NCBI GenBank assembly: GCA_049322295.1
Contig: JBMORO010000052.1
Span: 1-48,418 of the forward strand
DNA: 48,418 nucleotides
Reading direction: 5' to 3'
From: Patescibacteria group bacterium
GTDB lineage: Bacteria; Patescibacteriota; Minisyncoccia; RBG-13-40-8-A
Shown: positions 3,073-16,670 of the stretch, one piece after another
How positions within the stretch are numbered: position 1 is the stretch's first letter
Layout: the number at the start of each line of letters is the position of its first letter
Notes under the pieces: generated by a model
Seen by the model: the letters and a program-made list of their open reading frames with translations, nothing else
Databases searched by the model: none
Told to the model about the DNA's origin: nothing
Made by a program: the position numbers and the translations under genes

Positions 3073-5319
3073 CTATTGGGGCAAAGAATTAATAAATTTT
3101 TCAGCTTCATCTTTAAACGATGGGTCAATCTCGGCTGCTTTTAAAGCCATCTCCCTTGCCTTATCATAATTCCCTACCTTGGCATAAGCCGCGGCTAAAG
3201 AAGCATAAAATTGAGGATTTTGGGGTTGCTCTTCAATAGCTAAAAGATAATATCCTATAATTTTTTGGTAATTGCCAACTTTCTCATAAATATTTACTAA
3301 GCGCATTAAATCAGAAATACTATTTTTATAATCATAGCCTATTTCTATGGCTTTCTCCACATTAGTAACGGCCTCTTCATAATGTCCTAGGTAATAGGCG
3401 CTCACTCCCAGAAACCAATAAGAAATCATTACTTTGGGGTTAAGCTCCAGGGCCTTTTTAAAAGTTTGATATGACTCCTGATATTTTTTCTCAGAAAACT
3501 GAGCCTGGCCTAATTCATACCAGATTCGGGGATTTTTTTTATTAAGCTCTAGGGCCTTCCCAATAAAGGATTCTGCCTGGTCGCCAGCTCCTGCCTCTTT
3601 ATCTATTAATAGAATATACATTCTTCCCACATAAAGATAAGGGATGGTATCTTGGGGGTATTTTTCTATATTTTTCTCCACCTCATTAATCGCATAATAA
3701 AGCAAGGCTGGGTCAAAATCTTTGTTTTTTTGACGCTGAGATTCGGTAACTTGAATAGCAAAAGTGGCTAATTTATGTCTAATTTCATAACTACCCTGGG
3801 GAGTTTTGTAATTAAGGGCTTCTCGATATTTATTAAATGCCTGTTGGGCATTACCATCTCGACCAGCTATAATTGCTCGGGTACAAGCAAAATTAGCTCG
3901 AGCTGGTTTGATATTGGTCTGATAGGCGATAATGACAGCTATAGTTAATAATATAATAGTTAAAAAAATTGAAGGCCTCATTTCCTCTTGCTTATTTTTT
4001 TCCGCGTTTATCTGCGTAGCCATCTGCGTGTTTTCGCTTCTACCCAAATAATTAATGTAACCCAGAACCAAAAAGAACATAAAATAATTAGCAAAAGTAT
4101 CAAAAATAAAAAGATTCTGACCAATATAAGCAATTAACATTGCTGATAACACCCCGAAAGTCGCTTGATCTATTTTTTTTTCTTTAAATTTTTTAATAAG
4201 CAAATAGAAAATGATAATAAAAATAGATAAATAACTTAGAAGCCCTATCATTCCTTCTGTAGATAACATTTCCAAAATAATGTTATGGGCTCTGTCCCAG
4301 ATTGTCTCTGCCCCTAAGCCGGTAAAGTGACGTGGATCAAAATATTTCATATGCAAAAACATAAAATTTTCCGGTCCCCAACCAAATATCGGTTTTTCTT
4401 TCCATCCCAAAATAGCGCTTTTCCAAGACCATAATCTGGTCTGGACGGTTGAAGTATCTTTGGAAATATCAGTAATTCTACTTAACCAACCAATGTTTTT
4501 TATCCACCCTTGATTTCTATTTAGCCAGATTCCTATAGCTAGAATTATAAAAATTAATATAGCGATTGATAGATAAATTTTTGCTTTCCGATTTTTTGAA
4601 GCAAAAACAAAAAATAGAGTCAAAAGAAAAACAGAACCGAAAAGAGAAAGAACTGCCCCTCGAACTGCAGTCATCAATATCGCTGGAATACCCAAAATAA
4701 TTACTGCGACAAAAAATCCCTTTTGCCAGATGGCTGTATCGTTTTTTAACAAAAATAAAAGAGCCAAATAAATAATAAATAAAAGATAACCAGCAAAAAG
4801 AGCGGGATTACCAATAGTGCCAATAACTCTCTCGCCATGCTGCCAACCAACAAAAAAATCTCCCAGACGCAAGCGTTGACCATAAGCAAATAAAATTGAA
4901 AGAAAACCAACAAAAACTGATATTTTCAAAATTTTGTTCCAATCTTCCCTAACTCTAATAATGCTGGTCAAGATAAGAAAATAAACCCAAAAATGTAAGA
5001 AACTAAAAATACCACCCATTCGCTCTAGCGAACCCCACCAACTGTTATAAAAATTAACCCCGATAAGCCCAGTTAAAAAATAAAGACCAGTAAAAATAGA
5101 AAAGCTGATTAAAATTAAACTCCATTTTGGTCGATAATCCCTATTAATTAAAATTAAAAGAATATAAAAAACCGCCATTAATTCCACTAAAGTTCTAAAA
5201 ACAATCATCTTTCCAAAGTGAAATGGCGATAAATATTGGGAGAAAATAACCAAAGGCAAAAACAGGGAAATAAAAATTCCCCAACGAAGAATTTTTACAT
5301 AGGTATCTGAGGCATTCAT
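3073..5319 (-). CDS. O-antigen ligase/polymerase-like polytopic membrane protein fused to a C-terminal TPR domain
   Basis: The N-terminal part has many TM helices and a GTIGNPALFAGYLLF segment typical of Wzy_C/O-antigen ligase families. The C-terminal ~270 aa carries repeated TPR-like A..Y..AL.L.P motifs, for example FKKALELNPKVMISYWFLGVSAYYLGHYEEA and YASLAAAYAKVGNYDKAREMALKAAEIDP. The track start at 5367 is a TTG. I prefer the ATG at 5319 (MNASDTYVKILRWG) because a consensus promoter lies at 5332-5361. Confidence 0.75.
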   Translation of the reverse strand: MNASDTYVKILRWGIFISLFLPLVIFSQYLSPFHFGKMIVFRTLVELMAVFYILLILINRDYRPKWSLILISFSIFTGLYFLTGLIGVNFYNSWWGSLERMGGIFSFLHFWVYFLILTSIIRVREDWNKILKISVFVGFLSILFAYGQRLRLGDFFVGWQHGERVIGTIGNPALFAGYLLFIIYLALLFLLKNDTAIWQKGFFVAVIILGIPAILMTAVRGAVLSLFGSVFLLTLFFVFASKNRKAKIYLSIAILIFIILAIGIWLNRNQGWIKNIGWLSRITDISKDTSTVQTRLWSWKSAILGWKEKPIFGWGPENFMFLHMKYFDPRHFTGLGAETIWDRAHNIILEMLSTEGMIGLLSYLSIFIIIFYLLIKKFKEKKIDQATFGVLSAMLIAYIGQNLFIFDTFANYFMFFLVLGYINYLGRSENTQMATQINAEKNKQEEMRPSIFLTIILLTIAVIIAYQTNIKPARANFACTRAIIAGRDGNAQQAFNKYREALNYKTPQGSYEIRHKLATFAIQVTESQRQKNKDFDPALLYYAINEVEKNIEKYPQDTIPYLYVGRMYILLIDKEAGAGDQAESFIGKALELNKKNPRIWYELGQAQFSEKKYQESYQTFKKALELNPKVMISYWFLGVSAYYLGHYEEAVTNVEKAIEIGYDYKNSISDLMRLVNIYEKVGNYQKIIGYYLLAIEEQPQNPQFYASLAAAYAKVGNYDKAREMALKAAEIDPSFKDEAEKFINSLPQ
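4000..4041 (-). repeat. 42-nt in-frame element, copy a (encodes RSENTQMATQINAE)
   Basis: On the minus strand it reads agaagcgaaaacacgcagatggctacgcagataaacgcggaa. It is 32/42 identical to the copy at 46943-46984. It lies between the membrane domain and a further TM helix. Confidence 0.7.
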
Positions 5320-5331
5320 TACTATACTATT

Positions 5332-5361
5332 ATTATAATTTACCTCAAAATCTATTGTCAA
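5332..5361 (-). promoter_or_regulatory. Sigma70-type promoter, TTGACA-N18-TATAAT (consensus boxes), for the O-antigen-ligase-like gene
   Basis: On the minus strand TTGACA lies at 5361-5356, followed by an 18-nt spacer and TATAAT at 5337-5332. The ATG at 5319 lies 12 nt beyond the -10 box. Confidence 0.6.
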
Positions 5362-5383
5362 TTGCAATAAATTGAGATAGAAT
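5355..5383 (+). promoter_or_regulatory. Divergent sigma70-type promoter, TTGTCA-N17-TAGAAT, for the 5407-13029 operon
   Basis: TTGTCA lies at 5355-5360, followed by a 17-nt spacer and TAGAAT at 5378-5383. Its -35 box overlaps the -35 of the minus-strand promoter on the same TTGTCAA sequence. Confidence 0.5.
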
Positions 5384-5406
5384 TAAATTAATCCAAAATT
5401 AGATAT

Positions 5407-6777
5407 ATGAGGACTAAAAAATTTATTCTTTTATTAGGAGATATTTTGATTTTATATGCTTCTCTAATTATTGCCTTGACTATCCGCTATCAGGGCTTTG
5501 ATTTCGATATTCTAAAGACTCACTTTTTCCCTTTTTCTATAATTTATCTTATCTGGCTGATTATCTTTTATATTCACGATCTTTATGAGCTGGATATTGC
5601 TAAGAATAATATTGAATTTTCTTCGGCTCTAATTAGGGCTTTAATTATTGGCGGACTTATCTCAATAGTATTTTTCTATCTTGCTCCTAATTTTGCCTTT
5701 GGGGCAATTACTCCGAAAACCAACCTTTTCTTGAATATATTGGTCTTCGTGGTTTTGTTTTACGGATGGAGATATCTATTCAATTTAGTAGCCGGCTCCA
5801 TGAAAATAAAGGTGAATACCGCAATTATTGGTTATAATCCTCAAGCCATAGAATTAGCCAAAGAAATAATAAAAAATCCCCAGCTCGGCTATAAGTTAAA
5901 GCTAATTATAAAAAATCACGAAAAAATAGACAAAACCGATTTACCCGAGATTAAAATAACCGAAGGGCTAAAAAATCTAAAAGAAGCATTAGAACAAGAA
6001 AAAATTGCCGTAGCTATAGTTGCTCCAGAAATTTACCAATCCCCTGATTTAATCCAAAGTCTTTTCGAATGTATTCGTTATAAAATTGATTTTGTTAATC
6101 TTTCTGAATTTTATGAGAATCTTACCCAGAAGGTTCCTCTGGCTGCTATCAACCAGGTCTGGTTTTTGGAGAACATCTCCCAAAGAAATAGGGTCTTATA
6201 TGAATCTTTCAAAAGAATTTTTGACCTTATCTTTGCCTCTGCTCTTTTAATTGTTTCTCTTCCCTTCTGGTTAATTATCGCTTTAGTGATAAAAAGTGAG
6301 TCGCCTGGGCCAGTGTTTTACAAACAAATTAGAATTGGGCAGGGTGGAAAACCATTTAAAGTTATTAAATTTCGCTCAATGATAAAAGAGGCAGAAAAAG
6401 ACGGACCAAAAATGGCTCAAGAAAATGACCCCAGAGTAACTAAATTCGGAAGATTCTTAAGAAAAACAAGATTAGATGAACTTCCCCAACTTTGGAGTGT
6501 TATCAGGGGACAAATGAGCTTTGTTGGACCAAGAGCTGAAAGACCAGAATTCCATCAAGAATTGAAAGCTAAAATACCATTTTATCAAGAAAGATATCTA
6601 ATCAAGCCAGGGCTTTCTGGTTGGGCACAAATCAAGTACGGCTACACCTCATCACTGGAAGATAATTTTGAGAAAATTCAGCACGACCTTTTCTATGTTA
6701 AAAATCGTTCTTTTATTCTAGATTTAAGTATTATCTTAAAAACAATTAATATTATCCTCCGCGGCGGCGGGCGATAG
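5407..6777 (+). CDS. Polyprenyl-phosphate sugar-phosphate transferase (WbaP/EpsB-type bacterial sugar transferase, initiating enzyme)
   Basis: The protein has N-terminal TM helices and a central Rossmann-like segment. The C-terminal Bac_transf signature is KRIFDLIFASALLIVSLPFWLIIALVIKSESPGPVFYKQIRIGQGGKPFKVIKFRSM...DPRVTKFGRFLRKTRLDELPQLWSVIRGQMSFVGPRAERPEF. Confidence 0.9.
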   Translation: MRTKKFILLLGDILILYASLIIALTIRYQGFDFDILKTHFFPFSIIYLIWLIIFYIHDLYELDIAKNNIEFSSALIRALIIGGLISIVFFYLAPNFAFGAITPKTNLFLNILVFVVLFYGWRYLFNLVAGSMKIKVNTAIIGYNPQAIELAKEIIKNPQLGYKLKLIIKNHEKIDKTDLPEIKITEGLKNLKEALEQEKIAVAIVAPEIYQSPDLIQSLFECIRYKIDFVNLSEFYENLTQKVPLAAINQVWFLENISQRNRVLYESFKRIFDLIFASALLIVSLPFWLIIALVIKSESPGPVFYKQIRIGQGGKPFKVIKFRSMIKEAEKDGPKMAQENDPRVTKFGRFLRKTRLDELPQLWSVIRGQMSFVGPRAERPEFHQELKAKIPFYQERYLIKPGLSGWAQIKYGYTSSLEDNFEKIQHDLFYVKNRSFILDLSIILKTINIILRGGGR

Positions 6778-6789
6778 AAAATAGTTGTA

Positions 6790-6900
6790 TGGAAAATAGA
6801 AATTAGTAATAGAGATTAGAAAATGGAAATCAGGTAAGTTTCTAATTTCTAATCATCAATTTCCATTACCAATTTCCAATTTCTATATAGCCAATTTCCA
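6790..6900 (+). promoter_or_regulatory. Imperfect ~110-nt inverted repeat built from GGAAAT/ATTTCC units, ending 3 nt before the GT2 start codon
   Basis: The pairings are tggaaa (6790-6795)/tttcca (6895-6900), atagaaatt (6796-6804)/aatttctat (6878-6886) and aatggaaat (6822-6830)/atttccatt (6859-6867). CAATTTCC occurs 3 times in the right arm. Confidence 0.4.
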
Positions 6901-6903
6901 AAT

Positions 6904-7761
6904 ATGAATCTATCGATAATAATTCCGGCTTATAATGAAGAGGAATCAATTGAACGGATAATCAAGGAATTAAAACAAGAATTAAATAAGCTTGATTTAG
7001 ATTACGAAATGATAGTGGTTAATGATGCCTCAATTGATAAAACCGGAGAAATTTTAAAAAAAATATCTAATATAAAGATAATTGAACATCCGGAAAATCG
7101 AGGTTATGGAGCAAGTCTTAAGAGTGGATTTAAAAAAAGTCAGGGCGAATTAATTTTAATCATTGATGCTGATGGCACTTACCCAAATGAATCAATCCCA
7201 GAATTAATAAAATATGCTTCTTCCTATGATATGGTAATTGGGGCAAGAACTGGAAAACAAACAAAAATTCCATTAATAAGAAAACCAGCAAAATGGATTC
7301 TTAATAGATTGGCTAACTATCTTTCAGAAAGCAAAATTCCTGATCTCAATTCCGGCTTAAGAATTATGAAAAGACCCCTGATAGAGAAATTTCTCTACAT
7401 TCTACCAAACGGCTTCTCTTTTACAACTACTATAACCTTAGCAAGCCTAACCAATGGTTATAATGTTAAATATTTACCCATCAATTATTTAAAGAGAAGG
7501 GGGAAATCTAAATTTAGACCGATTAGAGATACTTTAAACTTCTTCCAGTTAATAATAAGAACTATCTTATATTTTAATCCGCTTAAAATCTTTGTGCCCT
7601 TAAGTTCAATATTGGTTCTATCAGCTGTGGTGGTCTTTGTTTTCAGTTATTTCTTCGCTGCTAAAATTATGGATGTTACGATAGCAATCTTACTAATTTC
7701 AGCTATCCAACTATTGGCGATTGGCATGATTGCTGACCTTATAACCAAACGGAAAACTTAA
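6904..7761 (+). CDS. GT2 glycosyltransferase, polyprenyl-phosphate sugar synthase-like (DPM1/GtrB/ArnC type) with C-terminal TM helices
   Basis: LSIIIPAYNEEESI, VVNDASIDKT and IIDADGTY form the GT-A DxD region. The C-terminus has two hydrophobic helices (FVPLSSILVLSAVVVFVFSYFF and ILLISAIQLLAIGMIADLI). Confidence 0.85.
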   Translation: MNLSIIIPAYNEEESIERIIKELKQELNKLDLDYEMIVVNDASIDKTGEILKKISNIKIIEHPENRGYGASLKSGFKKSQGELILIIDADGTYPNESIPELIKYASSYDMVIGARTGKQTKIPLIRKPAKWILNRLANYLSESKIPDLNSGLRIMKRPLIEKFLYILPNGFSFTTTITLASLTNGYNVKYLPINYLKRRGKSKFRPIRDTLNFFQLIIRTILYFNPLKIFVPLSSILVLSAVVVFVFSYFFAAKIMDVTIAILLISAIQLLAIGMIADLITKRKT

Positions 7762-7767
7762 TATTTT

Positions 7768-9201
7768 ATGAAAATCCTCCTAATAAATCCGCCTCGATTC
7801 AACGAAATTGTGGCTGATAATCCAAGTTTTATAGAAGAAGAGCGGGGATATAATCCCCCGCTCGGTATTTTGTATATTGCTGCTTATTTAAAAAAATATT
7901 CTAAACATAAAATTAATATCTTGGATGCTCAGGTCGAGGAATTAAACTATGATAATAACTTTAAAAATTCTATCAAATCTATAAACCCGGATATTATTGG
8001 TATCACCGCCATGACCCCTACTATAATAGATGTTTCAAAAACTATTAATCTGATAGGAAAAGTAGAGAAAGATTTAGATAAACAAATTATCACTGTACTC
8101 GGAGGACCCCACCCCACTATTTTCCCCGAAGAAACAATCAACTTAAATGGGGTTGATTATGTAATTACTGGAGAGGGAGAGATTCCTTTTTTAAAATTAA
8201 CCCAAGCCTTAGAAAATAAATTGGATTTAAAAGAAATAAAAGGATTAGTTTATAAAAAAGACGGAAAAATAATTAATAATGGACAAGCAGATTTTATAGA
8301 AGATCTGGATTCCTTGCCTTTTCCTGTCAGAACCTTAACGCCAATTAAAAAATATAATTCAATTTTAGCTGGAGGACGAATAATAACTACCATGATTACC
8401 TCTCGGGGTTGTCCCTACAAATGTGTTTTTTGTGACCGACCCCACTTGGGCAAGAGGTTCAGAGCCCGTTCTCCTAAAAATGTGGTAGATGAAATGGAGG
8501 AATGTAAAAAATTAGGAATTAACGAAATCTTAATTTACGATGATACCTTTACAGTCCAAAGACAAAGAGTTCTAGATATTTGTAAGGAAATTATAAAAAG
8601 AAATCTTAAAATAGTTTGGGATATCAGGGCCCGAGTTAATACAATTGACGAGGAGCTAGTTAAAAAATTAAAAGCAGCTGGCTGTGCTCGTATTCATTTT
8701 GGAGTGGAGGCTGGAACAGAGAAAATTTTAAAAGTTTTAAATAAAGGGATTACTTTAGAACAAGTTAAAAAGGCTTTTTCTTTAGCAAGAAAATATAAAA
8801 TTGAAACTTTGGCATATTTTATGATTGGTTCGCCAACCGAAACAAAAAAGGACATTGAAGAATCGATAAAATTAGCTAAAAAAATAAACCCCAACTTTGT
8901 TCACATCACTATTTTGACCCCTTATCCAGCTACCGAACTTTACTATCTGGCTTTAGAAAAAGGAGTAATAAAAAGCGATTATTGGCGGGAATTTGCCCGT
9001 AATCCAGAAAAAGGAGTAACTACTCAGTATTGGGAAGAAAGTTTTTCTAAACAAGAACTTGTTGCCCTTCTAAAAAAATTTTATAAAAGCTTTTATGGTC
9101 GACCCTCGTATATTTTGAAAAGCTTTTTCAAAATTAAAAACTTTGATGATCTCAAAAAGAAATTTAAGGCGGGTTTAAAGATCTTGGGGATTAAAAGATA
9201 G
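7768..9201 (+). CDS. B12-binding-domain radical SAM enzyme (class B), paralog 1
   Basis: The N-terminal module has MKILLINPP, LGILYIAAYL, GGPHPT and GEGE. The cluster motif is SRGCPYKCVFC. DLDSLPFPVR is also present. Confidence 0.85.
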   Translation: MKILLINPPRFNEIVADNPSFIEEERGYNPPLGILYIAAYLKKYSKHKINILDAQVEELNYDNNFKNSIKSINPDIIGITAMTPTIIDVSKTINLIGKVEKDLDKQIITVLGGPHPTIFPEETINLNGVDYVITGEGEIPFLKLTQALENKLDLKEIKGLVYKKDGKIINNGQADFIEDLDSLPFPVRTLTPIKKYNSILAGGRIITTMITSRGCPYKCVFCDRPHLGKRFRARSPKNVVDEMEECKKLGINEILIYDDTFTVQRQRVLDICKEIIKRNLKIVWDIRARVNTIDEELVKKLKAAGCARIHFGVEAGTEKILKVLNKGITLEQVKKAFSLARKYKIETLAYFMIGSPTETKKDIEESIKLAKKINPNFVHITILTPYPATELYYLALEKGVIKSDYWREFARNPEKGVTTQYWEESFSKQELVALLKKFYKSFYGRPSYILKSFFKIKNFDDLKKKFKAGLKILGIKR

Positions 9202-9204
9202 AAT

Positions 9205-10617
9205 ATGAGAGTTCTATTTATAAATAAATTTTTAGACAAAAATACTATCTATCGGGTGCCCTTGGGGATTTTATATTTGGGAACAATGGCAAAAGACAAA
9301 CACGATATTCGTATCTGCGACCCAAAAAGAGAAAACTTAAAAGACGTTATTAAACATTTTAAGCCGACTATTATTGCTTATTCTTTAAGAACGGGATTCC
9401 ATCAATATTACTTAAATTTAAATAAAAAACTAAAAACAGAATATAATTTTATCTCCATCTGTGGAGGTCCTCATGCCACTTTTTATCCAGAAATGATAAA
9501 ATCTGAGGGAGTAGACATTATTGGTCTTAGCGAGTGTGAAAAACCTTTTTTAGAATTAATTAACAAAATAGAGAAAGAAGAAAATTATTTTGCCACAAAA
9601 AACTTCTGGTTTAAATCTAAAAATGGTGAGATTATAAGAAACCCTCTCGAACCCTTAGAGCAAGATTTAGATTCTATCCCCTTCCCTGACCGTTCTTTTC
9701 TCAATCATCATAAAGAACTGAAATTTTCAAAAATCCATAATTTCATTGCCTCAAGAGGATGCCCTTACAATTGTACCTATTGCTTCAATCGTCGATTAAA
9801 AGTAATGTATCAAGGGCAAAGATATGTTAGAAAGAGAAGCGTTGACAATGTAATTAAAGAAATTGAAGGGGTAGCCAAAGACTATCCTTTAGAAAGAGTC
9901 CATTTCGAAGATGATACATTTAATATTAGTAAAGATTGGCTCAAAGAATTTGCTGAAAAATATCCGAAAATTCCTTTCAAGTGTAACATCAGAGCAGATT
10001 TAGTCGACGAGGAGGTCGTGGCTTTATTAAAAAAGGCGAATTGTATTAGTGTTACCTTTGCTATAGAAGCGGGCAATGACAGAATTAGAAACGAAATTTT
10101 GAAAAGAAATTTATCAAAGGAGCAATTAATTAATTGTGCAAATCTTTTAAAAAAATATAAAATAAGGTTTATCACTGAAAACATATTAGCCAATCCAACT
10201 TCTTCTTTAAAAGATGATGTAGAAACACTGGATTTAAACTTAATTTGTAAACCTGACTACCCCACGGTCTCTTTATTAAACCCTTATCCGGGCACGGAAA
10301 TTTATAATATTGCTATAAAATCAGGTGAATATCAGCCAAGAAATTTTGAGGAAATATCTTCTTTCTTTGATTCTACTCCTCTAAAATTAAAAAATCTCTC
10401 TGAGAGAATAAACTTACAAAGAATTTTCGCAATAATTATTGGCTTCCCCTTTCTAAGAAAATACTTAAACTTTTTAATTAAGTATAAATATTTAAGATTC
10501 ATTTACTCGCCTATCTATCATCTCTGGCGAGCTTATTGTCTGATGTTTAAAATAATGCCCCACAAAATTTCTTTAAGAGAACTTTTCTGGCTTGCCAGAC
10601 GATTTCTCGCCAGTTAA
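9205..10617 (+). CDS. B12-binding-domain radical SAM enzyme (class B), paralog 2
   Basis: LGILYLGT and CGGPHATF lie in the N-terminal module. DLDSIPFPDR is present. The cluster motif is SRGCPYNCTYC. Confidence 0.8.
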   Translation: MRVLFINKFLDKNTIYRVPLGILYLGTMAKDKHDIRICDPKRENLKDVIKHFKPTIIAYSLRTGFHQYYLNLNKKLKTEYNFISICGGPHATFYPEMIKSEGVDIIGLSECEKPFLELINKIEKEENYFATKNFWFKSKNGEIIRNPLEPLEQDLDSIPFPDRSFLNHHKELKFSKIHNFIASRGCPYNCTYCFNRRLKVMYQGQRYVRKRSVDNVIKEIEGVAKDYPLERVHFEDDTFNISKDWLKEFAEKYPKIPFKCNIRADLVDEEVVALLKKANCISVTFAIEAGNDRIRNEILKRNLSKEQLINCANLLKKYKIRFITENILANPTSSLKDDVETLDLNLICKPDYPTVSLLNPYPGTEIYNIAIKSGEYQPRNFEEISSFFDSTPLKLKNLSERINLQRIFAIIIGFPFLRKYLNFLIKYKYLRFIYSPIYHLWRAYCLMFKIMPHKISLRELFWLARRFLAS

Positions 10618-10622
10618 TTTAT

Positions 10623-12041
10623 ATGAAAATTTTATTATTAAATCCACCTTTTACTGATTATGGAGGACTTGAGGGTCACGGCGGCAAAGCCCTACCTTTA
10701 AATTTGGCTTATTTAGCAGGTTATTTAAGAGAAAAAAGACCAGATATAGAAATTAAGGTTTTAGATTGTGAGGCCCTTGGTTTACACTACGAACAAATCA
10801 GGGCAAAGATAAAGGAAATGAAACCAGATTTAGTTGGTATTACTACCCCAACGCCAGCTTTTACCCAAGTTTTAGAGGTCTGCCGAATTATAAAAGATAT
10901 CTCTCCCAAAATCATTATTGTGGTTGGCGGACCCCATCCCACTGCCTTGCCAAGAGAAACTATAGCTGAAAAAAATATTGATATTGTTGTAATTTATGAA
11001 GGAGAAATTACTTTTACCGAATTAATTGAAGCAATAGAGAAAAATAAACCCCTATCTCAAATCAAGGGCATTGTTTTTAAAGATGAAGATGGGAATATCC
11101 ATCAAACCGAACTAAGAGAGCGAATTGAGGATTTAGACAGTTTACCTTTTCCAGCTCGCGATCTCTTTCCCTTAGATCTTTATTTCCCTCCTCCTACTAA
11201 AAGAATAAGCAATAAAAAAGCAGGAAATATGATTACTTCTCGAGGTTGTCCTTATCAATGCACTTTTTGTATGGCCAGTTTTATGTGGCAAAGAAGGGTC
11301 AGATTTAGAAGTATCAAAAATGTAGTTGATGAAATTGAAGAATGTATAAATAAATATGGGATGGGGGAATTCAATTTTCACGATGAACTTTTTACAGTTA
11401 ACAGGGAAAGAACTATAGAGTTCTGTCGGGAGGTTAAGAGGCGAAACCTAGATATTGCTTGGGTTTGTATGGTCAGGGTTGATTTTGTTGATGAAGAAAT
11501 ATTAAAAGAAATGAAAGAAGCGGGTTGCAAAAAATTAATGTTTGGTTTTGAATCCGGTGATCAGGGAATCCTTGACCATATGAAAAAACAGGTTAAAGTC
11601 GAAGACGCTTACCGGGCAACAAAATTAGTTAAAGAGGCGGGCATCAAAACAGCCGGCAATTTTATGATCGGCAACATTGGCGAGACTGAAGAAACTATAA
11701 GAAAAAGTATTAATTTAGCCAAAAAATTAAATACTGATACTATTGCTTTTTTCGTTGCCAGTCCTTACCCTGGTACAGAATTTTATTATGAAGCTAAAAA
11801 ATTAGGTTATTTCCGGCCTGATTTTGAATGGAAAGATTTTACCCTCGTATCTAATAATTTACCACCCCTTAACTTACCTGGTTTGCCGGCTGAAAAAATT
11901 CTATATTGGCAAAAACGAGCTTATCGGGAATACTATATCCGGCCCCAATATATCTGGAGTAAAATCACTGGCATTAGAAGCTTAGTTGATTTAAAAAATT
12001 TATACAATGGAGCAAAATTATTTTTAAGATTAGAGAAATAA
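10623..12041 (+). CDS. B12-binding-domain radical SAM enzyme (class B), paralog 3
   Basis: MKILLLNPP, VGGPHPTA, DLDSLPFPARDL and the cluster motif SRGCPYQCTFC are all present. Confidence 0.85.
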   Translation: MKILLLNPPFTDYGGLEGHGGKALPLNLAYLAGYLREKRPDIEIKVLDCEALGLHYEQIRAKIKEMKPDLVGITTPTPAFTQVLEVCRIIKDISPKIIIVVGGPHPTALPRETIAEKNIDIVVIYEGEITFTELIEAIEKNKPLSQIKGIVFKDEDGNIHQTELRERIEDLDSLPFPARDLFPLDLYFPPPTKRISNKKAGNMITSRGCPYQCTFCMASFMWQRRVRFRSIKNVVDEIEECINKYGMGEFNFHDELFTVNRERTIEFCREVKRRNLDIAWVCMVRVDFVDEEILKEMKEAGCKKLMFGFESGDQGILDHMKKQVKVEDAYRATKLVKEAGIKTAGNFMIGNIGETEETIRKSINLAKKLNTDTIAFFVASPYPGTEFYYEAKKLGYFRPDFEWKDFTLVSNNLPPLNLPGLPAEKILYWQKRAYREYYIRPQYIWSKITGIRSLVDLKNLYNGAKLFLRLEK

Positions 12042-12048
12042 CTAATCC

Positions 12049-13029
12049 ATGAAATCATTTGATAAAAAAATTAAATTTTTTCTCAGGATATTAGGGCCAA
12101 TAATCTTTCTTTACATTCTTTCAAAAATAGACTATCAACTTCTTTTTAAAAAACTCGGCTCATTGAAATGGTCCTGGCTGATTCTGGCATTCGTATTAAT
12201 GATTTTGGAAATTATCGCCAGATCTCTGCGCTGGCAAACTATTTTAAATTCTTTGAAGATATTTATCTCAAAAATTAACTCTTTAACTCTCTATTGGCTA
12301 GGCGCATTCGTTAGTGTGATTACCCCTGGTCGTTTAGGAGAAGTGATTAAAGTTTATTTCCTTAAACACAAAAATTACAGTGTTTTCCGTTCTCTGCTCA
12401 GTATTATTTTAGACAGAATAATTGATATTTTGATTATCTTAATCCTCGGAGCGCTGATTTCTTTCTTTTTTGTTGAAAATGTTGGCTTATACGTAGTGGT
12501 AAGTGGTGTAATTTTAGTATTAGCTATTATTTTTGTTTTTCTGCTGATAGGTGAAGAAACTCGGGTTAATAAAATTTTTACAAGATTGGTACAAAAGTTT
12601 TTTTCAATTGATTTTGGCAAGTACGGCCGTTTTACTTTTGCTAAGCTCTGGCAGGGCATCAAAAATTTAAAAAAGAAGGACGTTGTCTGTTTCCTTCTTT
12701 ATTTAATTATCGGCTGGCTTTTCTATTTCCTTGCCCGTTATATTATTGCCCTATCCCTGAATCTGGATTTATCGTTCCTAGCCGTGAGCATCATTTCTAT
12801 TTTGGCGACTATTGTAACCATCCTGCCGATTTCTATAGCCGGAATAGGAACCAGAGAGGCAGCGATTATTTATTTGTTCGGCTTATTCGGCATAAACAAG
12901 GAACCGGCTTTGCTTTTTTCTCTCTTAATCCTCACTATTGATATGGTTGTGATTTCCCTCGGCTTTATCCCCTATTTAAAAGAATCATCATTAATCAATA
13001 GGGCTAAGACTGAAAAAGTAATGAAATAG
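12049..13029 (+). CDS. UPF0104 / lysyl-phosphatidylglycerol-synthase-TM-type 'flippase-like' membrane protein, paralog 1
   Basis: It has about 8 hydrophobic helices. The family motif is ITPGRLGEVIKVYFLK. It ends 26 nt inside the convergent gene 13004-14392. Confidence 0.75.
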   Translation: MKSFDKKIKFFLRILGPIIFLYILSKIDYQLLFKKLGSLKWSWLILAFVLMILEIIARSLRWQTILNSLKIFISKINSLTLYWLGAFVSVITPGRLGEVIKVYFLKHKNYSVFRSLLSIILDRIIDILIILILGALISFFFVENVGLYVVVSGVILVLAIIFVFLLIGEETRVNKIFTRLVQKFFSIDFGKYGRFTFAKLWQGIKNLKKKDVVCFLLYLIIGWLFYFLARYIIALSLNLDLSFLAVSIISILATIVTILPISIAGIGTREAAIIYLFGLFGINKEPALLFSLLILTIDMVVISLGFIPYLKESSLINRAKTEKVMK

Positions 13030-14392
13030 CTTCCTTGGCTGTTTGCTTTATTTCTTCTATGGTTTTCAGAGCGAGCAACCGTTTTAAAAGATACCTCGGC
13101 CTGAGGTAAAAAGACCTCAGCGCCTTTTTGTGGAGTTGCCAGATTTCTTCGTTTGACAGAAGTTGATTTTTCCAGATCGGCCTGCCTTTGGCCGAATCCA
13201 TCTCTAGATTGTCTTTATCCACCCAACCTTTGGCAATAGCTTCTTTCCGGAAAGGAGCCCCGAACTCAGGCACGCCGATGTTGAAAGAGGCATAATCTAA
13301 ATCAAGGGATTTGGCAAAATTAATTGTGTTTAAAACAGATTCTCTAGTCTCTCCGGGCAAACCGATAATAAAAGTGCCGACAGTTCTAATTTTTAATTTA
13401 CGGCAAAGATTTATCGCTTGCCTTACCTGTTCGAGAGAGATATTTTTTTCAACGCTTTTAAGAATGGAGTTGTTCCCGGATTCGATGCCAAACATAATAG
13501 TGTGGCAGCCTGCTTTTTTCATCAAAGTAAGAATGGCCTCATCCATTACATCAACTCTCGAAAAACAGGTCCAGCTGAAATTAAAATTTTTCCTAATCAG
13601 ATTTTCGCAAAATTCGATTGTTCTTTTCTGGTTGGCTCCAAATGTTTGGTCACGGACAAAAAGTTCATTTACTCCCAAAGATTTTAGTATTTCCAGCTCT
13701 TTCATTACGGAATCGAGAGGCCTCAGTTTAAAGCCAAGGGTATTTATTGCACAGAAAGAACATTTATAGGGACAGCCGAAGTCAGTTAAGATGCTGGCGA
13801 ACTTTCTTTTCCTGGTAAAAGGAAAGCTGTATTTTTCGAGATGAAACAAATCCCATCTGGGAAGGGGCACGTCAAATTCGCCGGAGCCGTGAATTTCATC
13901 ACCGATAATTACCTTGTCTTCGAATTTATAGATAACATTGTTTATTTTTCCGCCCTGGCTGTTTTTGAGATAACGGACAACATCGTCGGTTGAGAAATCA
14001 AGCAAAACAACGTCGATAAAAGGAGTTATGGTAAAAGTTTGTTCTCTCAATTCGCGGTAGATGTCGCCAGTGACAATGAGAATCAAACCGGAAATTTCCT
14101 CCTTTAGGTTTTTCAGGAAGGCGATATCTTTATAGTAAGAAGGGGAGGCCACCAAAGATAAAACTATATCTGGCGATATTTTTTTGATTTTTTCCAGACA
14201 GTCATTTGGCGAAAGCTGGTCGGCAATGGCGTCTATAATATCCAAATCAAAATCCTGTTTTGAAAATCTTCCGCTCAGATAAAGCAAGTCTAAGGGATGA
14301 TAGTAGTAACTAGCTTTTGATGCCTTACTTCGGTAATAATCGCGGAAATAAATTTTGTCTCCCGGTGGATTGAGTAATAATATCTTTTTCAT
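13004..14392 (-). CDS. B12-binding-domain radical SAM enzyme, divergent paralog 4
   Basis: MKKILLLNPP and the cluster motif DFGCPYKCSFC are present. The usual GGPH motif is replaced by IVTGDIY, so cobalamin binding is less certain. Confidence 0.75.
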   Translation of the reverse strand: MKKILLLNPPGDKIYFRDYYRSKASKASYYYHPLDLLYLSGRFSKQDFDLDIIDAIADQLSPNDCLEKIKKISPDIVLSLVASPSYYKDIAFLKNLKEEISGLILIVTGDIYRELREQTFTITPFIDVVLLDFSTDDVVRYLKNSQGGKINNVIYKFEDKVIIGDEIHGSGEFDVPLPRWDLFHLEKYSFPFTRKRKFASILTDFGCPYKCSFCAINTLGFKLRPLDSVMKELEILKSLGVNELFVRDQTFGANQKRTIEFCENLIRKNFNFSWTCFSRVDVMDEAILTLMKKAGCHTIMFGIESGNNSILKSVEKNISLEQVRQAINLCRKLKIRTVGTFIIGLPGETRESVLNTINFAKSLDLDYASFNIGVPEFGAPFRKEAIAKGWVDKDNLEMDSAKGRPIWKNQLLSNEEIWQLHKKALRSFYLRPRYLLKRLLALKTIEEIKQTAKEAISLLFQS

Positions 14393-14487: not shown

Positions 14488-15750
14488 ATGTTTTCAGCAC
14501 CACATCCACGCTATCGAATCTATACCCGACTCAAAAGTTATACCTCCTTTTTAGGCGACTTAATTTTGGGTCGAATTAATAAGGGAAATGATGTTGAAAA
14601 GCTCGAAAAGGCATTAACCAAGAAATTTGAGGTTTCTTATGTGGTTTGTATACCGATGAATCGAGTCGGCATCTATCTGGTATTAAAAAATTTAATTAAG
14701 CCAGGCCAAGAAGTCATTATGTCTCCTTATACCATTGCCGACATAGTCAATATGGTTATTTGTGCTGGCGGAAAACCTGTATTCGCTGACATTGAACAAC
14801 GAACATGTAATATAGATGCTAATAAAATTGAAGAGCTTATTAATACCAACACCGGCGCTGTCTTAATTACTCATTTACATGGCATTGGAGCGCCTACTCA
14901 TGAAATCCTAAAAATTTGTCATAAACACAATTTACCTGTTGTCGAAGATGCGGCTCAGGCATTCGGCGCCCGGGAGCAAGGAAAGCGGCTCGGAACAATC
15001 GGCGATGCTGGAGTTTACAGCTTCGGAATGTATAAAAACATCAACAGCTGGTATGGGGGGGCAGTGGTTTCAGAAAACAAAGCCCTGATTGATAAAATCC
15101 GCTCTGAACTCAGCCAGTATAAATACCAATCCCCGTTGTTTATTTTCAAAAAAATATTAAAGGGGTTAATGAGAGATGCTCTCACTTTTCCGCTGATTTT
15201 TCAGTCCCTAACTTATTGGATATTCCGCTATGGCTTCCTTCACGATATTAAGTGGATTAATCAGCAGGTAGAGATTGAGCTGGATACTGGTTTAAAAACA
15301 AAAATCCCGCCCCCTTATTTTGCACGCTATACCCCCTTTCAGGCGCGCCTGGCCCTTTCGCAAATAAACCGCATTGATGTTGAAGGCAATATGCGCATTG
15401 AAAAAGCAGCAGCTTACCGCAAGGGTCTTCAGAATATCCCTGAACTGGTTCTCCCACCGGATGAAAATGATTCGATTTATATTTATCCTTATTTTCCGAT
15501 TCAGTATAAAAATCGCCGAGGATTGCTCAAATGGCTTATGCTTCATAAAAGAGATGTGGCAGCTCAGCATTTAAAAAACTGCGCTAACCTGCCAAGTTTC
15601 TCTGCTTTCTATCGTGATTGCCCCGTTGCTCGAAAAACGGCAAATGAAGTAATACTCCTCCCTACTTATCCTAGATATCCGATTTCCGATGTTCAAAAAA
15701 CCATTAGGGTTATCCAATCTTATTTCCAAACAAATAGAAAAAACGAATGA
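14488..15750 (+). CDS. DegT/DnrJ/EryC1-type PLP-dependent sugar aminotransferase
   Basis: VVEDAAQAFGA and the PLP-lysine region GDAGVYSFGMYKNINSWYGGAVV are present. The size and layout fit the family. Confidence 0.75.
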   Translation: MFSAPHPRYRIYTRLKSYTSFLGDLILGRINKGNDVEKLEKALTKKFEVSYVVCIPMNRVGIYLVLKNLIKPGQEVIMSPYTIADIVNMVICAGGKPVFADIEQRTCNIDANKIEELINTNTGAVLITHLHGIGAPTHEILKICHKHNLPVVEDAAQAFGAREQGKRLGTIGDAGVYSFGMYKNINSWYGGAVVSENKALIDKIRSELSQYKYQSPLFIFKKILKGLMRDALTFPLIFQSLTYWIFRYGFLHDIKWINQQVEIELDTGLKTKIPPPYFARYTPFQARLALSQINRIDVEGNMRIEKAAAYRKGLQNIPELVLPPDENDSIYIYPYFPIQYKNRRGLLKWLMLHKRDVAAQHLKNCANLPSFSAFYRDCPVARKTANEVILLPTYPRYPISDVQKTIRVIQSYFQTNRKNE

Positions 15751-16670
15751 AATATTCTTTCCTCATCGGGATATTTTTGTTTGCGATAATTCTTTTAAAA
15801 ATCGACCTCGGGGGGATTTTACAAAATATAAAAGAAATCAATCCTCTTTTTTTGATTCTTGCGATGTTAGCTGCTTTCCCGATACTTCTAAACAAAGCTC
15901 TTTGCTGGAACTATATTAAAACCCAACAAGGAATAAAATACAGCTTGAAAGATTCGTTCTTGATGTACTGCGCCGGCCTGTACATCGGAGTCCTTACCCC
16001 GGGCAGGCTGGGCGAAGCAACCAAGGTCCTGTATTTAAAAAATGACGGACATTCTCTGGGTAAGGCATTGGTCGGGGTTGTACTGGACAGGATTACAGAT
16101 TTTGCTTTTTTCCTGTTCGTGCTTCTTATCGGTTCGCTGTTCTTAATTAGTGTTCTTCAAAAGCAGGTCCTGATTCTAATTGCCGGCATTTTGGTTCTGG
16201 TCTGCCTATTTATAGTATTTTTAAAAATCGGCTTAATTAAATGGGGAATAAATAAAGCATTCCGCGCGTTTATTCCCCGTAAATATCAAAAATCCTGGAA
16301 AATAAATTTCCAGGATTTCATCGCAGATTTGAAGATTTACAAGCTCAGGGCTTACGTGATAATGATGGTTATCACCGCTTTATCCTCGGGCTTTTATTAT
16401 TTGCAGATGTATATTTTGGCCAGAGGCATGAATATGGACATTCCATTTTTATATCTAGCCGTTTCGGTCACTATTGCCGGGCTTGTCACGCTTATTCCCG
16501 TGTCGATCTCTGGAATAGGCACCCGAGATGCTGCTTTAATCCTTTTGCTCTCCCCCCTGGGAATCCTCAAGGAGCAGGCGGTTGTTTTTTCGGCTCTGAT
16601 TCTGATAATGGCATTAATAGCAACTTTAATCGGACTAATCTGCTGGCTTATTAAACCCCTAAGGGCGTAG
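15747..16670 (+). CDS. UPF0104 'flippase-like' membrane protein, paralog 2
   Basis: The protein is multi-TM and carries the family motif LTPGRLGEATKVLYLK. Its start overlaps the upstream stop in ATGA. Confidence 0.75.
   Translation: MKYSFLIGIFLFAIILLKIDLGGILQNIKEINPLFLILAMLAAFPILLNKALCWNYIKTQQGIKYSLKDSFLMYCAGLYIGVLTPGRLGEATKVLYLKNDGHSLGKALVGVVLDRITDFAFFLFVLLIGSLFLISVLQKQVLILIAGILVLVCLFIVFLKIGLIKWGINKAFRAFIPRKYQKSWKINFQDFIADLKIYKLRAYVIMMVITALSSGFYYLQMYILARGMNMDIPFLYLAVSVTIAGLVTLIPVSISGIGTRDAALILLLSPLGILKEQAVVFSALILIMALIATLIGLICWLIKPLRA

Follow-up and report, generated by a model that had tools for sequence, protein, structure and literature searches.

What do three consecutive B12-type radical S-adenosylmethionine (SAM) enzymes act upon when their genes lie between a glycosyltransferase and a membrane protein of a putative flippase family? 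The question is raised by a locus in the window analysed here, which is the whole 48,418-nucleotide stretch of contig JBMORO010000052.1 (GenBank assembly GCA_049322295.1) from a member of the Patescibacteria. Five open reading frames (ORFs) on the forward strand, separated by gaps of 6, 3, 5 and 7 nucleotides, encode a family 2 glycosyltransferase (GT2a, PF00535, 6904-7761), a B12-binding radical SAM protein (rSAM1, 7768-9201), a divergent and accessory B12-type radical SAM protein (rSAM2, 9205-10617), a further B12-binding radical SAM protein that forms the core of the module (rSAM3, 10623-12041) and a PF03706/TIGR00374 membrane protein (UPF0104a, 12049-13029). An initial annotation, made from the sequence alone, had placed these co-directional genes at exactly the same positions, 3-7 nucleotides apart, and had proposed that they mirror the logic of the HpnI-HpnJ-HpnL side-chain module of hopanoid operons. 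On balance, we regard the block as probably the core of an Arn/Gtr/AglD-type pathway for a lipid-carried monosaccharide, in which B12-type radical SAM enzymes tailor the sugar. This reading rests on the family and fold assignments, the conserved gene linkage and the domain fusions computed here.

GT2a carries a PF00535 domain (117 bits) and, as had been described, ends in two hydrophobic transmembrane (TM) helices, which hydropathy places at residues 221-239 and 258-276. Its best NCBIfam matches are AglJ, PgfS, ArnC and a dolichyl-phosphate hexose transferase. Residues 2-280, with the TM hairpin included, align to the structures of GtrB from Synechocystis (5ekp, 1.3e-21), ArnC (9hwj, 1.6e-21) and DPMS from Pyrococcus (5mlz, 1.2e-19), and two more ArnC structures (9bhc and 8vxh) match over the full length. 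With a GT-A domain, a C-terminal TM hairpin and this full-length homology, GT2a is, by its sequence, a polyprenyl-phosphate sugar synthase of the GtrB/ArnC/DPMS type, and the earlier proposal that it makes a lipid-linked sugar is very probably correct. The HpnI model TIGR03472 gives no match (cutoff 310 bits) and BLASTP against true HpnI returns E=1.3, and the two proteins are, as far as these comparisons reach, unrelated beyond the GT-A fold. Because GT2a matches GtrB, ArnC and DPMS over its full length and has no similarity to HpnI, its predicted lipid acceptor is almost certainly polyprenyl phosphate and not a hopanoid.

UPF0104a scores 170 bits against PF03706 (LPG_synthase_TM, cutoff 33.4) and 97.6 bits against TIGR00374 (cutoff 43.2), and it contains the motif ITPGRLGE, with P93 and G97 invariant, in agreement with the UPF0104 assignment and PGRLGE motif first reported for 12049-13029. 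Neither its sequence nor a 15-sequence profile retrieved anything from the PDB chains, even at E<=10. We built an AlphaFold2 model from an alignment of homologous-protein search hits (predicted local distance difference test, pLDDT, 89; predicted TM score, pTM, 0.85), and the six top Foldseek matches to this model are all MprF structures (7duw, 9goe, 9j8s, 9j8q, 7f47 and 6lvf; probability 1.00, TMq 0.56-0.60), with every non-MprF match at a probability of 0.12 or less. Since the model matches only MprF structures, the assignment to the UPF0104/MprF flippase-domain group holds; as modelled, UPF0104a has the fold of the N-terminal flippase domain of MprF, and lipid translocation would be its activity. 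Against the HpnL model TIGR03476 it reaches 25.4 bits (cutoff 195.65), and hhalign of its profile with HpnL gives a probability of 13% and E 0.002, with the positions of P-x-x-R-x-G-E and G-L-G-x-x-E aligned. By sequence, UPF0104a and HpnL are members of one Pfam family, PF03706, and of separate subfamilies, so that the suspected kinship with HpnL and MprF extends to the shared family and to the MprF fold but not to the HpnL subfamily.

All three radical SAM proteins have an N-terminal PF02310 B12-binding domain (84.5 bits in rSAM1, 86.3 in rSAM3 and a marginal 34.3 in rSAM2, cutoff 32.1) and a PF04055 domain (113, 72.5 and 92.7 bits in rSAM1, rSAM2 and rSAM3) with the CxxxCxxC motif, in which C215, C219 and C222 are invariant, and their fold matches class B structures. 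Three class B paralogs in tandem were thus correctly recognised, the B12 domain of rSAM2 being marginal. Pairwise identities of 29-39% indicate that they are old paralogs; recent duplication, considered as their origin, is ruled out by these identities together with the separate orthologs found for each of rSAM1 to rSAM4, the last being a fourth radical SAM protein encoded downstream. Hydropathy predicts soluble proteins, except for a hydrophobic C-terminal segment (residues 407-425) in rSAM2.

The hopanoid arrangement, in which a GT2 and a B12-type radical SAM enzyme are grouped with a UPF0104-family protein, is real. We find it in Mycetohabitans rhizoxinica (L034, hpnI-hpnJ-hpnK followed by a gene with an LPG-synthase domain) and in Paraburkholderia graminis (L005, hpnJ-hpnI followed by an LPG-synthase-domain gene that is HpnL), and HpnL belongs to PF03706. 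As controls, the true proteins score 843 (HpnJ), 496 (HpnI) and 340 bits (HpnL) on their own models; true HpnJ stays at or below 113 bits on any other model, and the HpnL of P. graminis reaches 340 bits on TIGR03476, 122.5 on PF03706 and 37 on TIGR00374. The best values in the window are 273 bits for HpnJ (cutoff 578), no match for HpnI (310) and 25 bits for HpnL (196), and none of the scanned window ORFs contains a squalene-hopene cyclase (SHC), HpnH, HpnI or HpnK (YdjC) domain. A hopanoid locus was rejected on the lack of Hpn subfamily membership and of shc. The resemblance to hopanoid logic therefore survives as a design principle but not as a family assignment, none of the Hpn cutoffs being reached, and the extent first given to the operon was incomplete: the gene unit runs past the five-gene block, and rSAM4, a DegT aminotransferase, a second UPF0104 protein (UPF0104b) and a GT-C glycosyltransferase also belong to it.

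Conservation of the gene set in relatives

Loci in other genomes were sampled by a one-genome-per-species scan, which gave 24 loci, and by assembly look-up of six more places with Pfam labels, some of them duplicates; the sample covers Patescibacteria, Woesearchaeota, Omnitrophota, Elusimicrobia, Acidobacteria and other lineages. Linkage was counted within 10 kb, using hidden Markov models built here, in 20 non-redundant loci with an rSAM3 ortholog (49-80% identity) that were left after removal of duplicates and truncated contigs. A UPF0104 gene accompanies rSAM3 in 17 of the 20, a GtrB-like GT2 gene in 15 and a PMT_2-family GT-C gene in 8. Orthologs of rSAM3 (49-88% identity) are found in at least six phyla and two domains of life, in bacteria of the Candidate Phyla Radiation (CPR), DPANN archaea, Omnitrophota, Elusimicrobia and Acidobacteria, and the homologs at 65-88% come from metagenome-assembled genomes (MAGs) of Parcubacteria/Patescibacteria. 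Those of rSAM1 (51-71%) adjoin rSAM3 in Patescibacteria, Omnitrophota, Woesearchaeota and Bacteriovoracaceae, those of rSAM2 (63-68%) are present only in a subset of the Patescibacteria loci, and those of rSAM4 (59-60%) lie beside DegT, UPF0104 and GT2a in two loci (L009 and L014). The DegT gene has orthologs (54-71%) co-located with the rSAM1/rSAM3-GT2a set in Patescibacteria and Bacteriovoracaceae.

The typical layout in Patescibacteria is rSAM1-[rSAM2]-rSAM3-UPF0104a-GT2a-DegT, with rSAM2 often missing and a polyprenyl glycosylphosphotransferase (PGT) gene on the opposite strand. Only one Patescibacteria MAG (L008) repeats the order with GT2 first that is seen in the window. It has two divergent modules, rSAM1-rSAM3-methyltransferase-UPF0104a-GT2a (8430-13903, forward strand) and a second, paralogous one with the GT2-first order, GT2-rSAM-rSAM-UPF0104 (3664-8370, reverse strand), which ends in a UPF0104b ortholog (56% identity). 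Other layouts are UPF0104-rSAM3-methyltransferase-PMT_2 in Acidobacteria (L036), GT2-methyltransferase-sulfotransferase-PMT_2-rSAM3-UPF0104 in L038, and GT2-PMT_2-oxidoreductase-rSAM1-rSAM3-rSAM-GT2 with a UPF0104 gene farther along in Omnitrophota (L037), while three Woesearchaeota loci (L003, L020 and L021) hold GT2, rSAM3, UPF0104 and PMT_2 together. The rSAM3 gene immediately adjoins that for UPF0104 in Patescibacteria, Woesearchaeota and Acidobacteria and also in L038; GT2 stands directly beside radical SAM genes in L003 and L037; and PMT_2 stands beside rSAM3 orthologs in Woesearchaeota, Omnitrophota, Acidobacteria, Elusimicrobia and L038 (loci with this pairing include L003, L020-L023, L036 and L038). 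Methyltransferase genes intervene between rSAM3 and UPF0104 in L008 and L014, and an EamA gene follows UPF0104 in L001. The expectation that the GT2-rSAM-UPF0104 arrangement would be conserved thus holds for gene membership, across two domains of life, but not for the exact order, which varies.

This variation also bears on the suggestion that the three paralogs carry out a multi-step radical cascade on a single sugar. The three tandem paralogs are real, but rSAM2 is dispensable and relatives carry from one to five radical SAM genes, and the idea of an obligatory three-step cascade is therefore weakened. A separate array of five tandem B12-type radical SAM genes, whose products have 34-37% identity to the window paralogs, is found in a Halothermothrix MAG (L030, 3382-11311), and neither UPF0104 nor GT2 was detected near it.

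Two gene fusions involve the same families. In Woesearchaeota, 2.8 kb from rSAM3, an LPG_synthase_TM domain is joined to a class I methyltransferase in one protein of 499 residues (L017, 14210-15709), and in an unclassified bacterium a B12-type radical SAM domain is joined to a class I methyltransferase (L028, 1188-3290, 700 residues). There is precedent for a fused enzyme that acts on the lipid handled by a PF03706 domain, both in MprF (a synthase with a flippase domain) and in AglD (a GT2-UPF0104 fusion; PMC5898192). Because the fusions resemble these precedents, they suggest by analogy that the methyltransferases, and via them the radical SAM enzymes, may act on the same lipid-linked substrate.

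The proposed pathway and its alternatives

In the pathway that we propose, the DegT aminotransferase (14488-15750) would help to make an amino-sugar nucleotide, as its homology and conserved linkage suggest, and GT2a would load the sugar on polyprenyl phosphate at the cytoplasmic face, as its strong homology to GtrB, ArnC and DPMS suggests. The sugar would be edited by rSAM3, usually with rSAM1 and optionally with rSAM2 or rSAM4, most likely while it is lipid-linked; candidate edits are C-methylation, dehydration or deoxygenation, oxidation and ring contraction, and class I methyltransferases may add further marks. The UPF0104 protein, with its modelled MprF-domain fold, would translocate the finished polyprenyl-phosphate sugar, and the PMT_2 GT-C encoded at 16687-17832 would transfer it to a surface glycan or protein, in keeping with its homology and with the linkage in other phyla. 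In a three-component system of GT2, flippase and GT-C, the GT-C is expected with the GT2, and here the two are encoded together. The parts of this scheme that we infer are the stage and the chemistry of radical SAM action, the flipping by UPF0104 and the acceptor.

Several points weigh against this pathway. The block contains no GtrA, ArnE/F or small flippase of the EamA/SMR (small multidrug resistance) type, a UPF0104 gene standing in that place; no obvious enzyme in the window makes the keto-sugar that DegT needs; and each step is a prediction from genes and modelled structure. Hydropathy marks the radical SAM enzymes as soluble, save the one segment of rSAM2, and nucleotide sugars or an undecaprenyl-diphosphate (Und-PP) oligosaccharide are possible substrates. 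PMT_2 lies within 10 kb in just 8 of the 20 loci, rarely in Patescibacteria, and three loci (L015, L022 and L027) have rSAM3 with no UPF0104 gene within 10 kb. The genes all lie in glycan islands, so their linkage may partly reflect general clustering. To our knowledge, flipping of a polyprenyl-phosphate sugar by a UPF0104 protein has never been shown. The functions of GpgF and HpnL are likewise unverified (PMC12713373, PMC12324291).

For the chemistry of the radical SAM enzymes, we compared scores on NCBIfam models, which for the methylases serve as a proxy for full-length GenK, Fom3, HpnR, PhpK and MoeK5 references. HpnJ or BchE is the top named model for each of rSAM1 to rSAM4, above every methylase model. 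The scores on HpnJ and BchE are 225 and 237 bits for rSAM1, 101 and 80 for rSAM2, 273 and 236 for rSAM3, and 185 and 154 for rSAM4; the best methylase model falls below both in rSAM1, rSAM2 and rSAM4, and in rSAM3 it reaches 166 bits (PhpK family). Even the best of these scores are far lower than the equivalog cutoffs (577.6 bits for HpnJ, TIGR03471; 481 bits for BchE). Orthologs in other phyla, of the paralogs other than rSAM2, were re-scored as well, and for rSAM3 orthologs from Woesearchaeota, Acidobacteria, Omnitrophota and Elusimicrobia HpnJ is again the top model (234-260 bits), ahead of the methylase models. The ranking of the models agrees with the view that the enzymes may be HpnJ-like and need not be methylases, but it does not carry over to membership of the HpnJ subfamily.

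Among solved structures, the rSAM3 profile matches AprD4 best (145 bits), followed by MgmA/QCMT (9ccb, 110; named in PMC12931638), OxsB (93), TsrM (67), TokK (58) and CysS (47). A Foldseek search with the rSAM3 model gives the same order, with AprD4 nearest (E 1e-26, TMq 0.72); AprD4, MgmA, TsrM, OxsB, CysS and TokK all have TM scores of about 0.7, and the fold does not discriminate between their chemistries. We also computed two neighbour-joining trees, one from a 161-column core that includes the PDB fragments of AprD4, QCMT, OxsB, TsrM and TokK, and one from 453 full-length columns without them. Both are star-like, with bootstrap support of 90-100% for the ortholog groups and at most 38% for deeper nodes, and in neither does a supported clade join any window paralog to HpnJ or to methylases. 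The trees show neither a firm clustering with methylases, which would have counted against the earlier proposal, nor a firm affinity to HpnJ. HpnJ itself pairs with a radical SAM protein from a Lawsonia glycan cluster (95-97.5% bootstrap) and not with a window paralog.

This Lawsonia protein, encoded on a 27-kb plasmid of the pathogen Lawsonia intracellularis (L007, 6837-8300), is the closest relative of HpnJ in our sample (376 bits on TIGR03471). Its glycan cluster comprises a GT2, two DUF2304 proteins, a SIS protein, a GHMP kinase, a HAD-IIIA protein and six class I methyltransferase ORFs, two of which are short adjacent fragments (306 and 513 nucleotides), and no hopanoid genes are annotated on the plasmid. 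HpnJ-like enzymes therefore occur outside hopanoid loci.

The alternative that survives best, which we take seriously while placing it somewhat short of probable, is that all seven radical SAM proteins of the window are ordinary cobalamin-dependent C-methyltransferases. They would act on sugars of an envelope polysaccharide at the stage of the nucleotide sugar, the undecaprenyl-phosphate (Und-P) sugar or the Und-PP-oligosaccharide, giving a heavily C- and O-methylated glycan, and UPF0104 and GT2 would be mere co-residents of the island. Most characterised B12-type radical SAM enzymes are indeed methyltransferases, including the sugar C-methylases GenK, GenD1, Fms7 and MoeK5 (PMC12931638), and the B12-binding domains of rSAM1 and rSAM3 are strong (84-86 bits), but all named methylase models score below HpnJ/BchE for rSAM1 to rSAM4 and for the orthologs tested (166 against 273 bits in rSAM3). 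The second-closest solved structure to rSAM3 is a methylase, MgmA/QCMT, but the closest, AprD4, is a non-methylating sugar diol dehydratase (145 bits, against 110 for QCMT, 67 for TsrM, 58 for TokK and 47 for CysS), and the trees contain no supported grouping of a paralog with a methylase. Genes for class I methyltransferases and GT4s abound in the island and often have a radical SAM gene as partner, and a fusion of radical SAM and class I methyltransferase domains exists (L028), whereas the tight adjacency of rSAM3 and UPF0104 in four phyla exceeds what co-residence in an island would give. As to the reaction itself, judged from sequence, C-methylation is plausible without being expected, ring contraction is improbable, and dehydration, oxidation or other reactions take up the rest of the probability.

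A more specific form of the lipid-carried pathway, in which rSAM3 and rSAM1 make a non-methylating skeletal change (a ring contraction like that of HpnJ, Cds or OxsB, or a deoxygenation like that of AprD4) on a polyprenyl-phosphate-linked amino sugar, which the PF03706 protein flips and the GT-C installs on the surface, is unlikely. If it were true, radical editing of sugars at the level of the lipid carrier would form a new class common to the ultra-small bacteria of the CPR, the DPANN archaea, the Omnitrophota and further lineages, and PF03706 proteins would have their first defined role as flippases of polyprenyl-phosphate sugars.

We consider it distinctly unlikely that a lipid-linked hexosamine is contracted to a cyclitol (carbasugar) in the manner of HpnJ or Cds and then exported by UPF0104. 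Among NCBIfam models, HpnJ ranks first for rSAM2, rSAM3, rSAM4 and the rSAM3 orthologs in five phyla, but the scores are under half of the HpnJ cutoff of 577.6 bits. Over its whole length rSAM3 is collinear with true HpnJ at 31% identity, the C-terminal domain included, whereas alignments to methylase models end near residue 400, but rSAM3 is equally close to BchE (31% identity, 236 bits). True hopanoid operons do join HpnI, HpnJ, HpnK and a PF03706 protein, and the Lawsonia relative of HpnJ (376 bits, 97.5% bootstrap) lies in a glycan cluster with a GT2 and DUF2304; set against this, no HpnK-type deacetylase is found in the window and the trees contain no supported clade of HpnJ with a window paralog. 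We know of no precedent for GT-C transfer of a carbasugar from polyprenyl phosphate. Moreover, the ring contraction of lipid-bound glucosamine by HpnJ is itself a genetic inference, drawn from gene deletion (PMC13459092).

Remodelling of membrane lipids is improbable. In this reading, GT2 and the radical SAM enzymes would build or alter a glycolipid head group, like GpgSDF, HexSDF and Cds, or would change the lipid chains, like B12-type radical SAM enzymes of the Grs/Gmm type, and UPF0104 would flip the product. In its favour, CPR and DPANN cells scavenge host lipids, the rSAM3 family is common to both, the characterised or proposed partners of PF03706 proteins are membrane lipids [MprF with lysyl-phosphatidylglycerol, GpgF with glucosaminyl-phosphatidylglycerol (GlcN-PG), YbhN with ClsB], lipid-modifying B12-type radical SAM enzymes exist (GrsA/B, Gmm, HpnP/R) and the model TIGR04072 for such enzymes of lipid biosynthesis scores 135-157 bits. 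Against it, the solved members of the GT2a class all use polyprenyl or dolichyl phosphate, the genes around the block encode a PGT, Wzx, proteins like Wzy and GT-C enzymes, and PMT_2 GT-C proteins, which use polyprenyl-phosphate sugars, accompany rSAM3 in five lineages. Bacteria, with ester lipids, and archaea, with ether lipids, also share the same enzyme at 50-60% identity, which is easier to reconcile with a sugar or polyprenyl as substrate than with lipid tails.

The B12-type radical SAM superfamily has more than 220,000 members, few of which are characterised (PMC12931638). For rSAM3, the genomic context predicts a concrete substrate, a polyprenyl-phosphate-linked sugar. If the lipid-carried monosaccharide pathway is correct, the repertoire for modifying lipid-carried sugars gains radical chemistry, a defined role falls to UPF0104/PplT, a widespread orphan family, and unusual surface glycans are to be expected on cells that live attached to others and whose envelope chemistry is essentially unknown.

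The surrounding envelope-glycan island

The block lies directly 3' of an initiating sugar-phosphate transferase, as the initial annotation had noted: a PGT of the Bac_transf family (5407-6777, forward strand; PF02397 228 bits; TIGR03025 381 bits, cutoff 295) precedes GT2a by 126 nucleotides. It is the initiating enzyme of the island, and its gene is probably the first of the transcription unit; an ortholog (45-50% identity) is linked in the Patescibacteria loci. Downstream, rSAM4 (13004-14392, reverse strand; PF04055 86 bits; PF02310 24.8 bits, below the cutoff) is a fourth B12-type radical SAM protein, whose gene is convergent to that of UPF0104a and overlaps its 3' end by 26 nucleotides. The genes that follow on the forward strand encode the DegT/DnrJ/EryC1-family sugar aminotransferase (14488-15750; PF01041 191 bits), which probably supplies the amino-sugar donor, UPF0104b (15747-16670; PF03706 142.5 bits; TIGR00374 102 bits), the ArnT/Pmt-like GT-C of the PMT_2 family (16687-17832; PF13231 39.1 bits, cutoff 26.1), which has eight hydrophobic segments and is a predicted extracytoplasmic transferase using a polyprenyl-phosphate sugar, and a class I SAM methyltransferase (17851-18780; PF08241 59 bits). 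Next to them, on the reverse strand, is a membrane protein with ten hydrophobic segments (18800-20560) and a faint likeness to Wzy_C, at E=0.031 only, which is a possible polymerase, ligase or acceptor-side enzyme; its homologs (29-42% identity) occur in five loci (L008, L010, L012, L014 and L025) and lie upstream of rSAM1 in several Patescibacteria loci.

In all, the window (GC content about 33%) is one envelope-glycan island that encodes seven B12-type radical SAM proteins, three UPF0104 proteins, two ArnC/GtrB-like GT2s, at least seven GT4s, at least five class I methyltransferases and two AsnB-like amidotransferases, together with a Wzx-like protein, a Wzy_C-TPR protein, a phosphodiesterase and a DUF2298-like protein with 14 TM segments. 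The Patescibacteria/CPR lineage is generally thought unable to make B12, and seven cobalamin-type enzymes in one island imply a strong cofactor dependence. Scans of the window against Rfam (for example for a cobalamin riboswitch) and for tRNAs gave no match. Back-to-back sigma-70-like promoters are found at 5332-5399, between the gene for the Wzy_C-TPR protein (reverse strand, 12/12 match to the consensus) and the PGT gene (forward strand, 10/12), and this interval probably controls the left arm of the island; the promoter and terminator scans are otherwise near background. The terminator scan flags, on both strands, a GC-rich and near-perfect inverted repeat, GAGCGGGGGATTATATCCCCGCTC, at 7840-7863 within the 5' part of rSAM1.

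The remaining radical SAM genes, rSAM5 (21754-23211), rSAM6 (31186-32661) and rSAM7 (44934-46355), are on the reverse strand and each adjoins genes for a GT4, a class I methyltransferase or both, which suggests that sub-modules of glycosyltransferase, radical SAM enzyme and methyltransferase are repeated in the island. Also on the reverse strand, a third UPF0104 gene (28370-29335) is followed by one of the type I phosphodiesterase/alkaline-phosphatase superfamily (27143-28366) and by that of the 14-TM DUF2298-like protein (25120-27135; 27.5 bits, just under the cutoff), and the three are possibly a further set of flippase and transferase. An ORF at 669-2465 (reverse strand, 598 residues) has no Pfam match, one N-terminal hydrophobic segment and an HExxH motif (HEFQH), and its product may be a secreted metalloprotease-like protein; its homologs (36-42% identity) adjoin the PGT gene in Patescibacteria loci L008, L009, L011, L012 and L025. 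Two AsnB-type glutamine amidotransferases (34629-36521 and 39553-41397, reverse strand; PF00733 333 and 278 bits), of which L038 also has one, may amidate uronic acids of the glycan. At the right end, the GT4 ORFs 46352-47590 and 47466-48266 (reverse strand) overlap by 125 nucleotides, and the upstream one (266 residues) has the C-terminal Glycos_transf_1 domain only; the pair could represent a single GT4 that is split or frameshifted, or an artefact of start-codon choice.

Comparison with known systems

The hopanoid module HpnI-HpnJ-HpnK-HpnL and the block each combine, in one operon, a GT2 with a B12-type radical SAM enzyme and a PF03706 protein, and they share a logic in which a lipid is glycosylated, its head group tailored and the product passed to a flippase-like protein. 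They differ in that GT2a is of the polyprenyl-phosphate sugar synthase type, that the window has several radical SAM paralogs and lacks shc, hpnH and hpnK, and that a GT-C transferase follows the block, so that the sugar would be passed on and not kept on the lipid as in the hopanoid case. Cds is the second enzyme proposed to contract a ring on a lipid head group (PMC13459092), and what HpnL does is still unknown (PMC12324291). The GpgSDF operon of Pseudomonas aeruginosa (for GlcN-PG) and the HexSDF operon of Clostridioides difficile serve glycolipids and encode a glycosyltransferase together with a deacetylase and a UPF0104 'flippase' (PMC12713373). Like the block, they unite a glycosyltransferase, a cytoplasmic enzyme that tailors the head group and a UPF0104 protein, but they use a membrane glycerolipid as acceptor, a GT4 and a deacetylase, and have no GT-C; the flippase activity is unverified there too.

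Among the characterised enzymes, AprD4, a radical SAM 1,2-diol dehydratase whose substrate is the aminoglycoside sugar of paromamine, resembles rSAM3 as its nearest solved structure and as a sugar-modifying enzyme that is not a methylase. AprD4 binds no cobalamin (PMC12931638), whereas rSAM3 has a strong PF02310 domain; the N-terminal domain of AprD4 did not align (the match starts at residue 163), and the identity is about 23%. The C-methyltransferases GenK, MoeK5, HpnR/HpnP and MgmA/QCMT share the class B architecture, and C-methylation of a sugar would suit the methyl-rich island, but their models score below HpnJ/BchE for rSAM1 to rSAM4 and no supported grouping in the trees joins them to the window proteins.

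Another genomic counterpart is archaeal. Makarova et al. (2015) predicted UPF0104 (arCOG00899) to be a flippase and described a conserved archaeal neighbourhood in which it occurs with an AglD-like GT2 and a PMT/STT3-like GT-C (PMC5898192). This AglD-type triad of GT2, UPF0104 and GT-C (arCOG00899, arCOG00897 and arCOG00563) is present here in the Woesearchaeota loci L003, L020 and L021. Radical SAM proteins are absent from that description (PMC5898192), whereas the set reported here includes a conserved family of B12-type radical SAM enzymes and also reaches CPR bacteria, Omnitrophota, Acidobacteria and Elusimicrobia. Our literature searches found no account, for CPR genomes or any others, in which B12-type radical SAM genes accompany UPF0104, GT2 or GT-C. 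The parts are of known kinds, and what is new, in that it is not described in the searchable literature, is a deeply conserved B12-type radical SAM family inside the GT2/UPF0104/GT-C triad across CPR, DPANN and other phyla.

With the Arn (ArnB-ArnC-ArnD-ArnE/F-ArnT) and Gtr/CsbB systems, the window shares a DegT aminotransferase, an ArnC/GtrB-like GT2 with a TM hairpin and a PMT_2 GT-C in one locus. In the Arn pathway, tailoring of the Und-P-linked sugar by ArnD takes place in the cytoplasm and precedes flipping. The tailoring enzyme is a deformylase in Arn and would be a B12-type radical SAM protein here, and the flippase is GtrA or ArnE/F in the Arn and Gtr systems, in contrast to the PF03706/MprF-type candidate of the window. 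By analogy, the Hpn operon, GpgSDF/HexSDF and Arn would all follow the same logic as the module in the window, in which a lipid is glycosylated, its sugar is tailored in the cytoplasm and the product is flipped.

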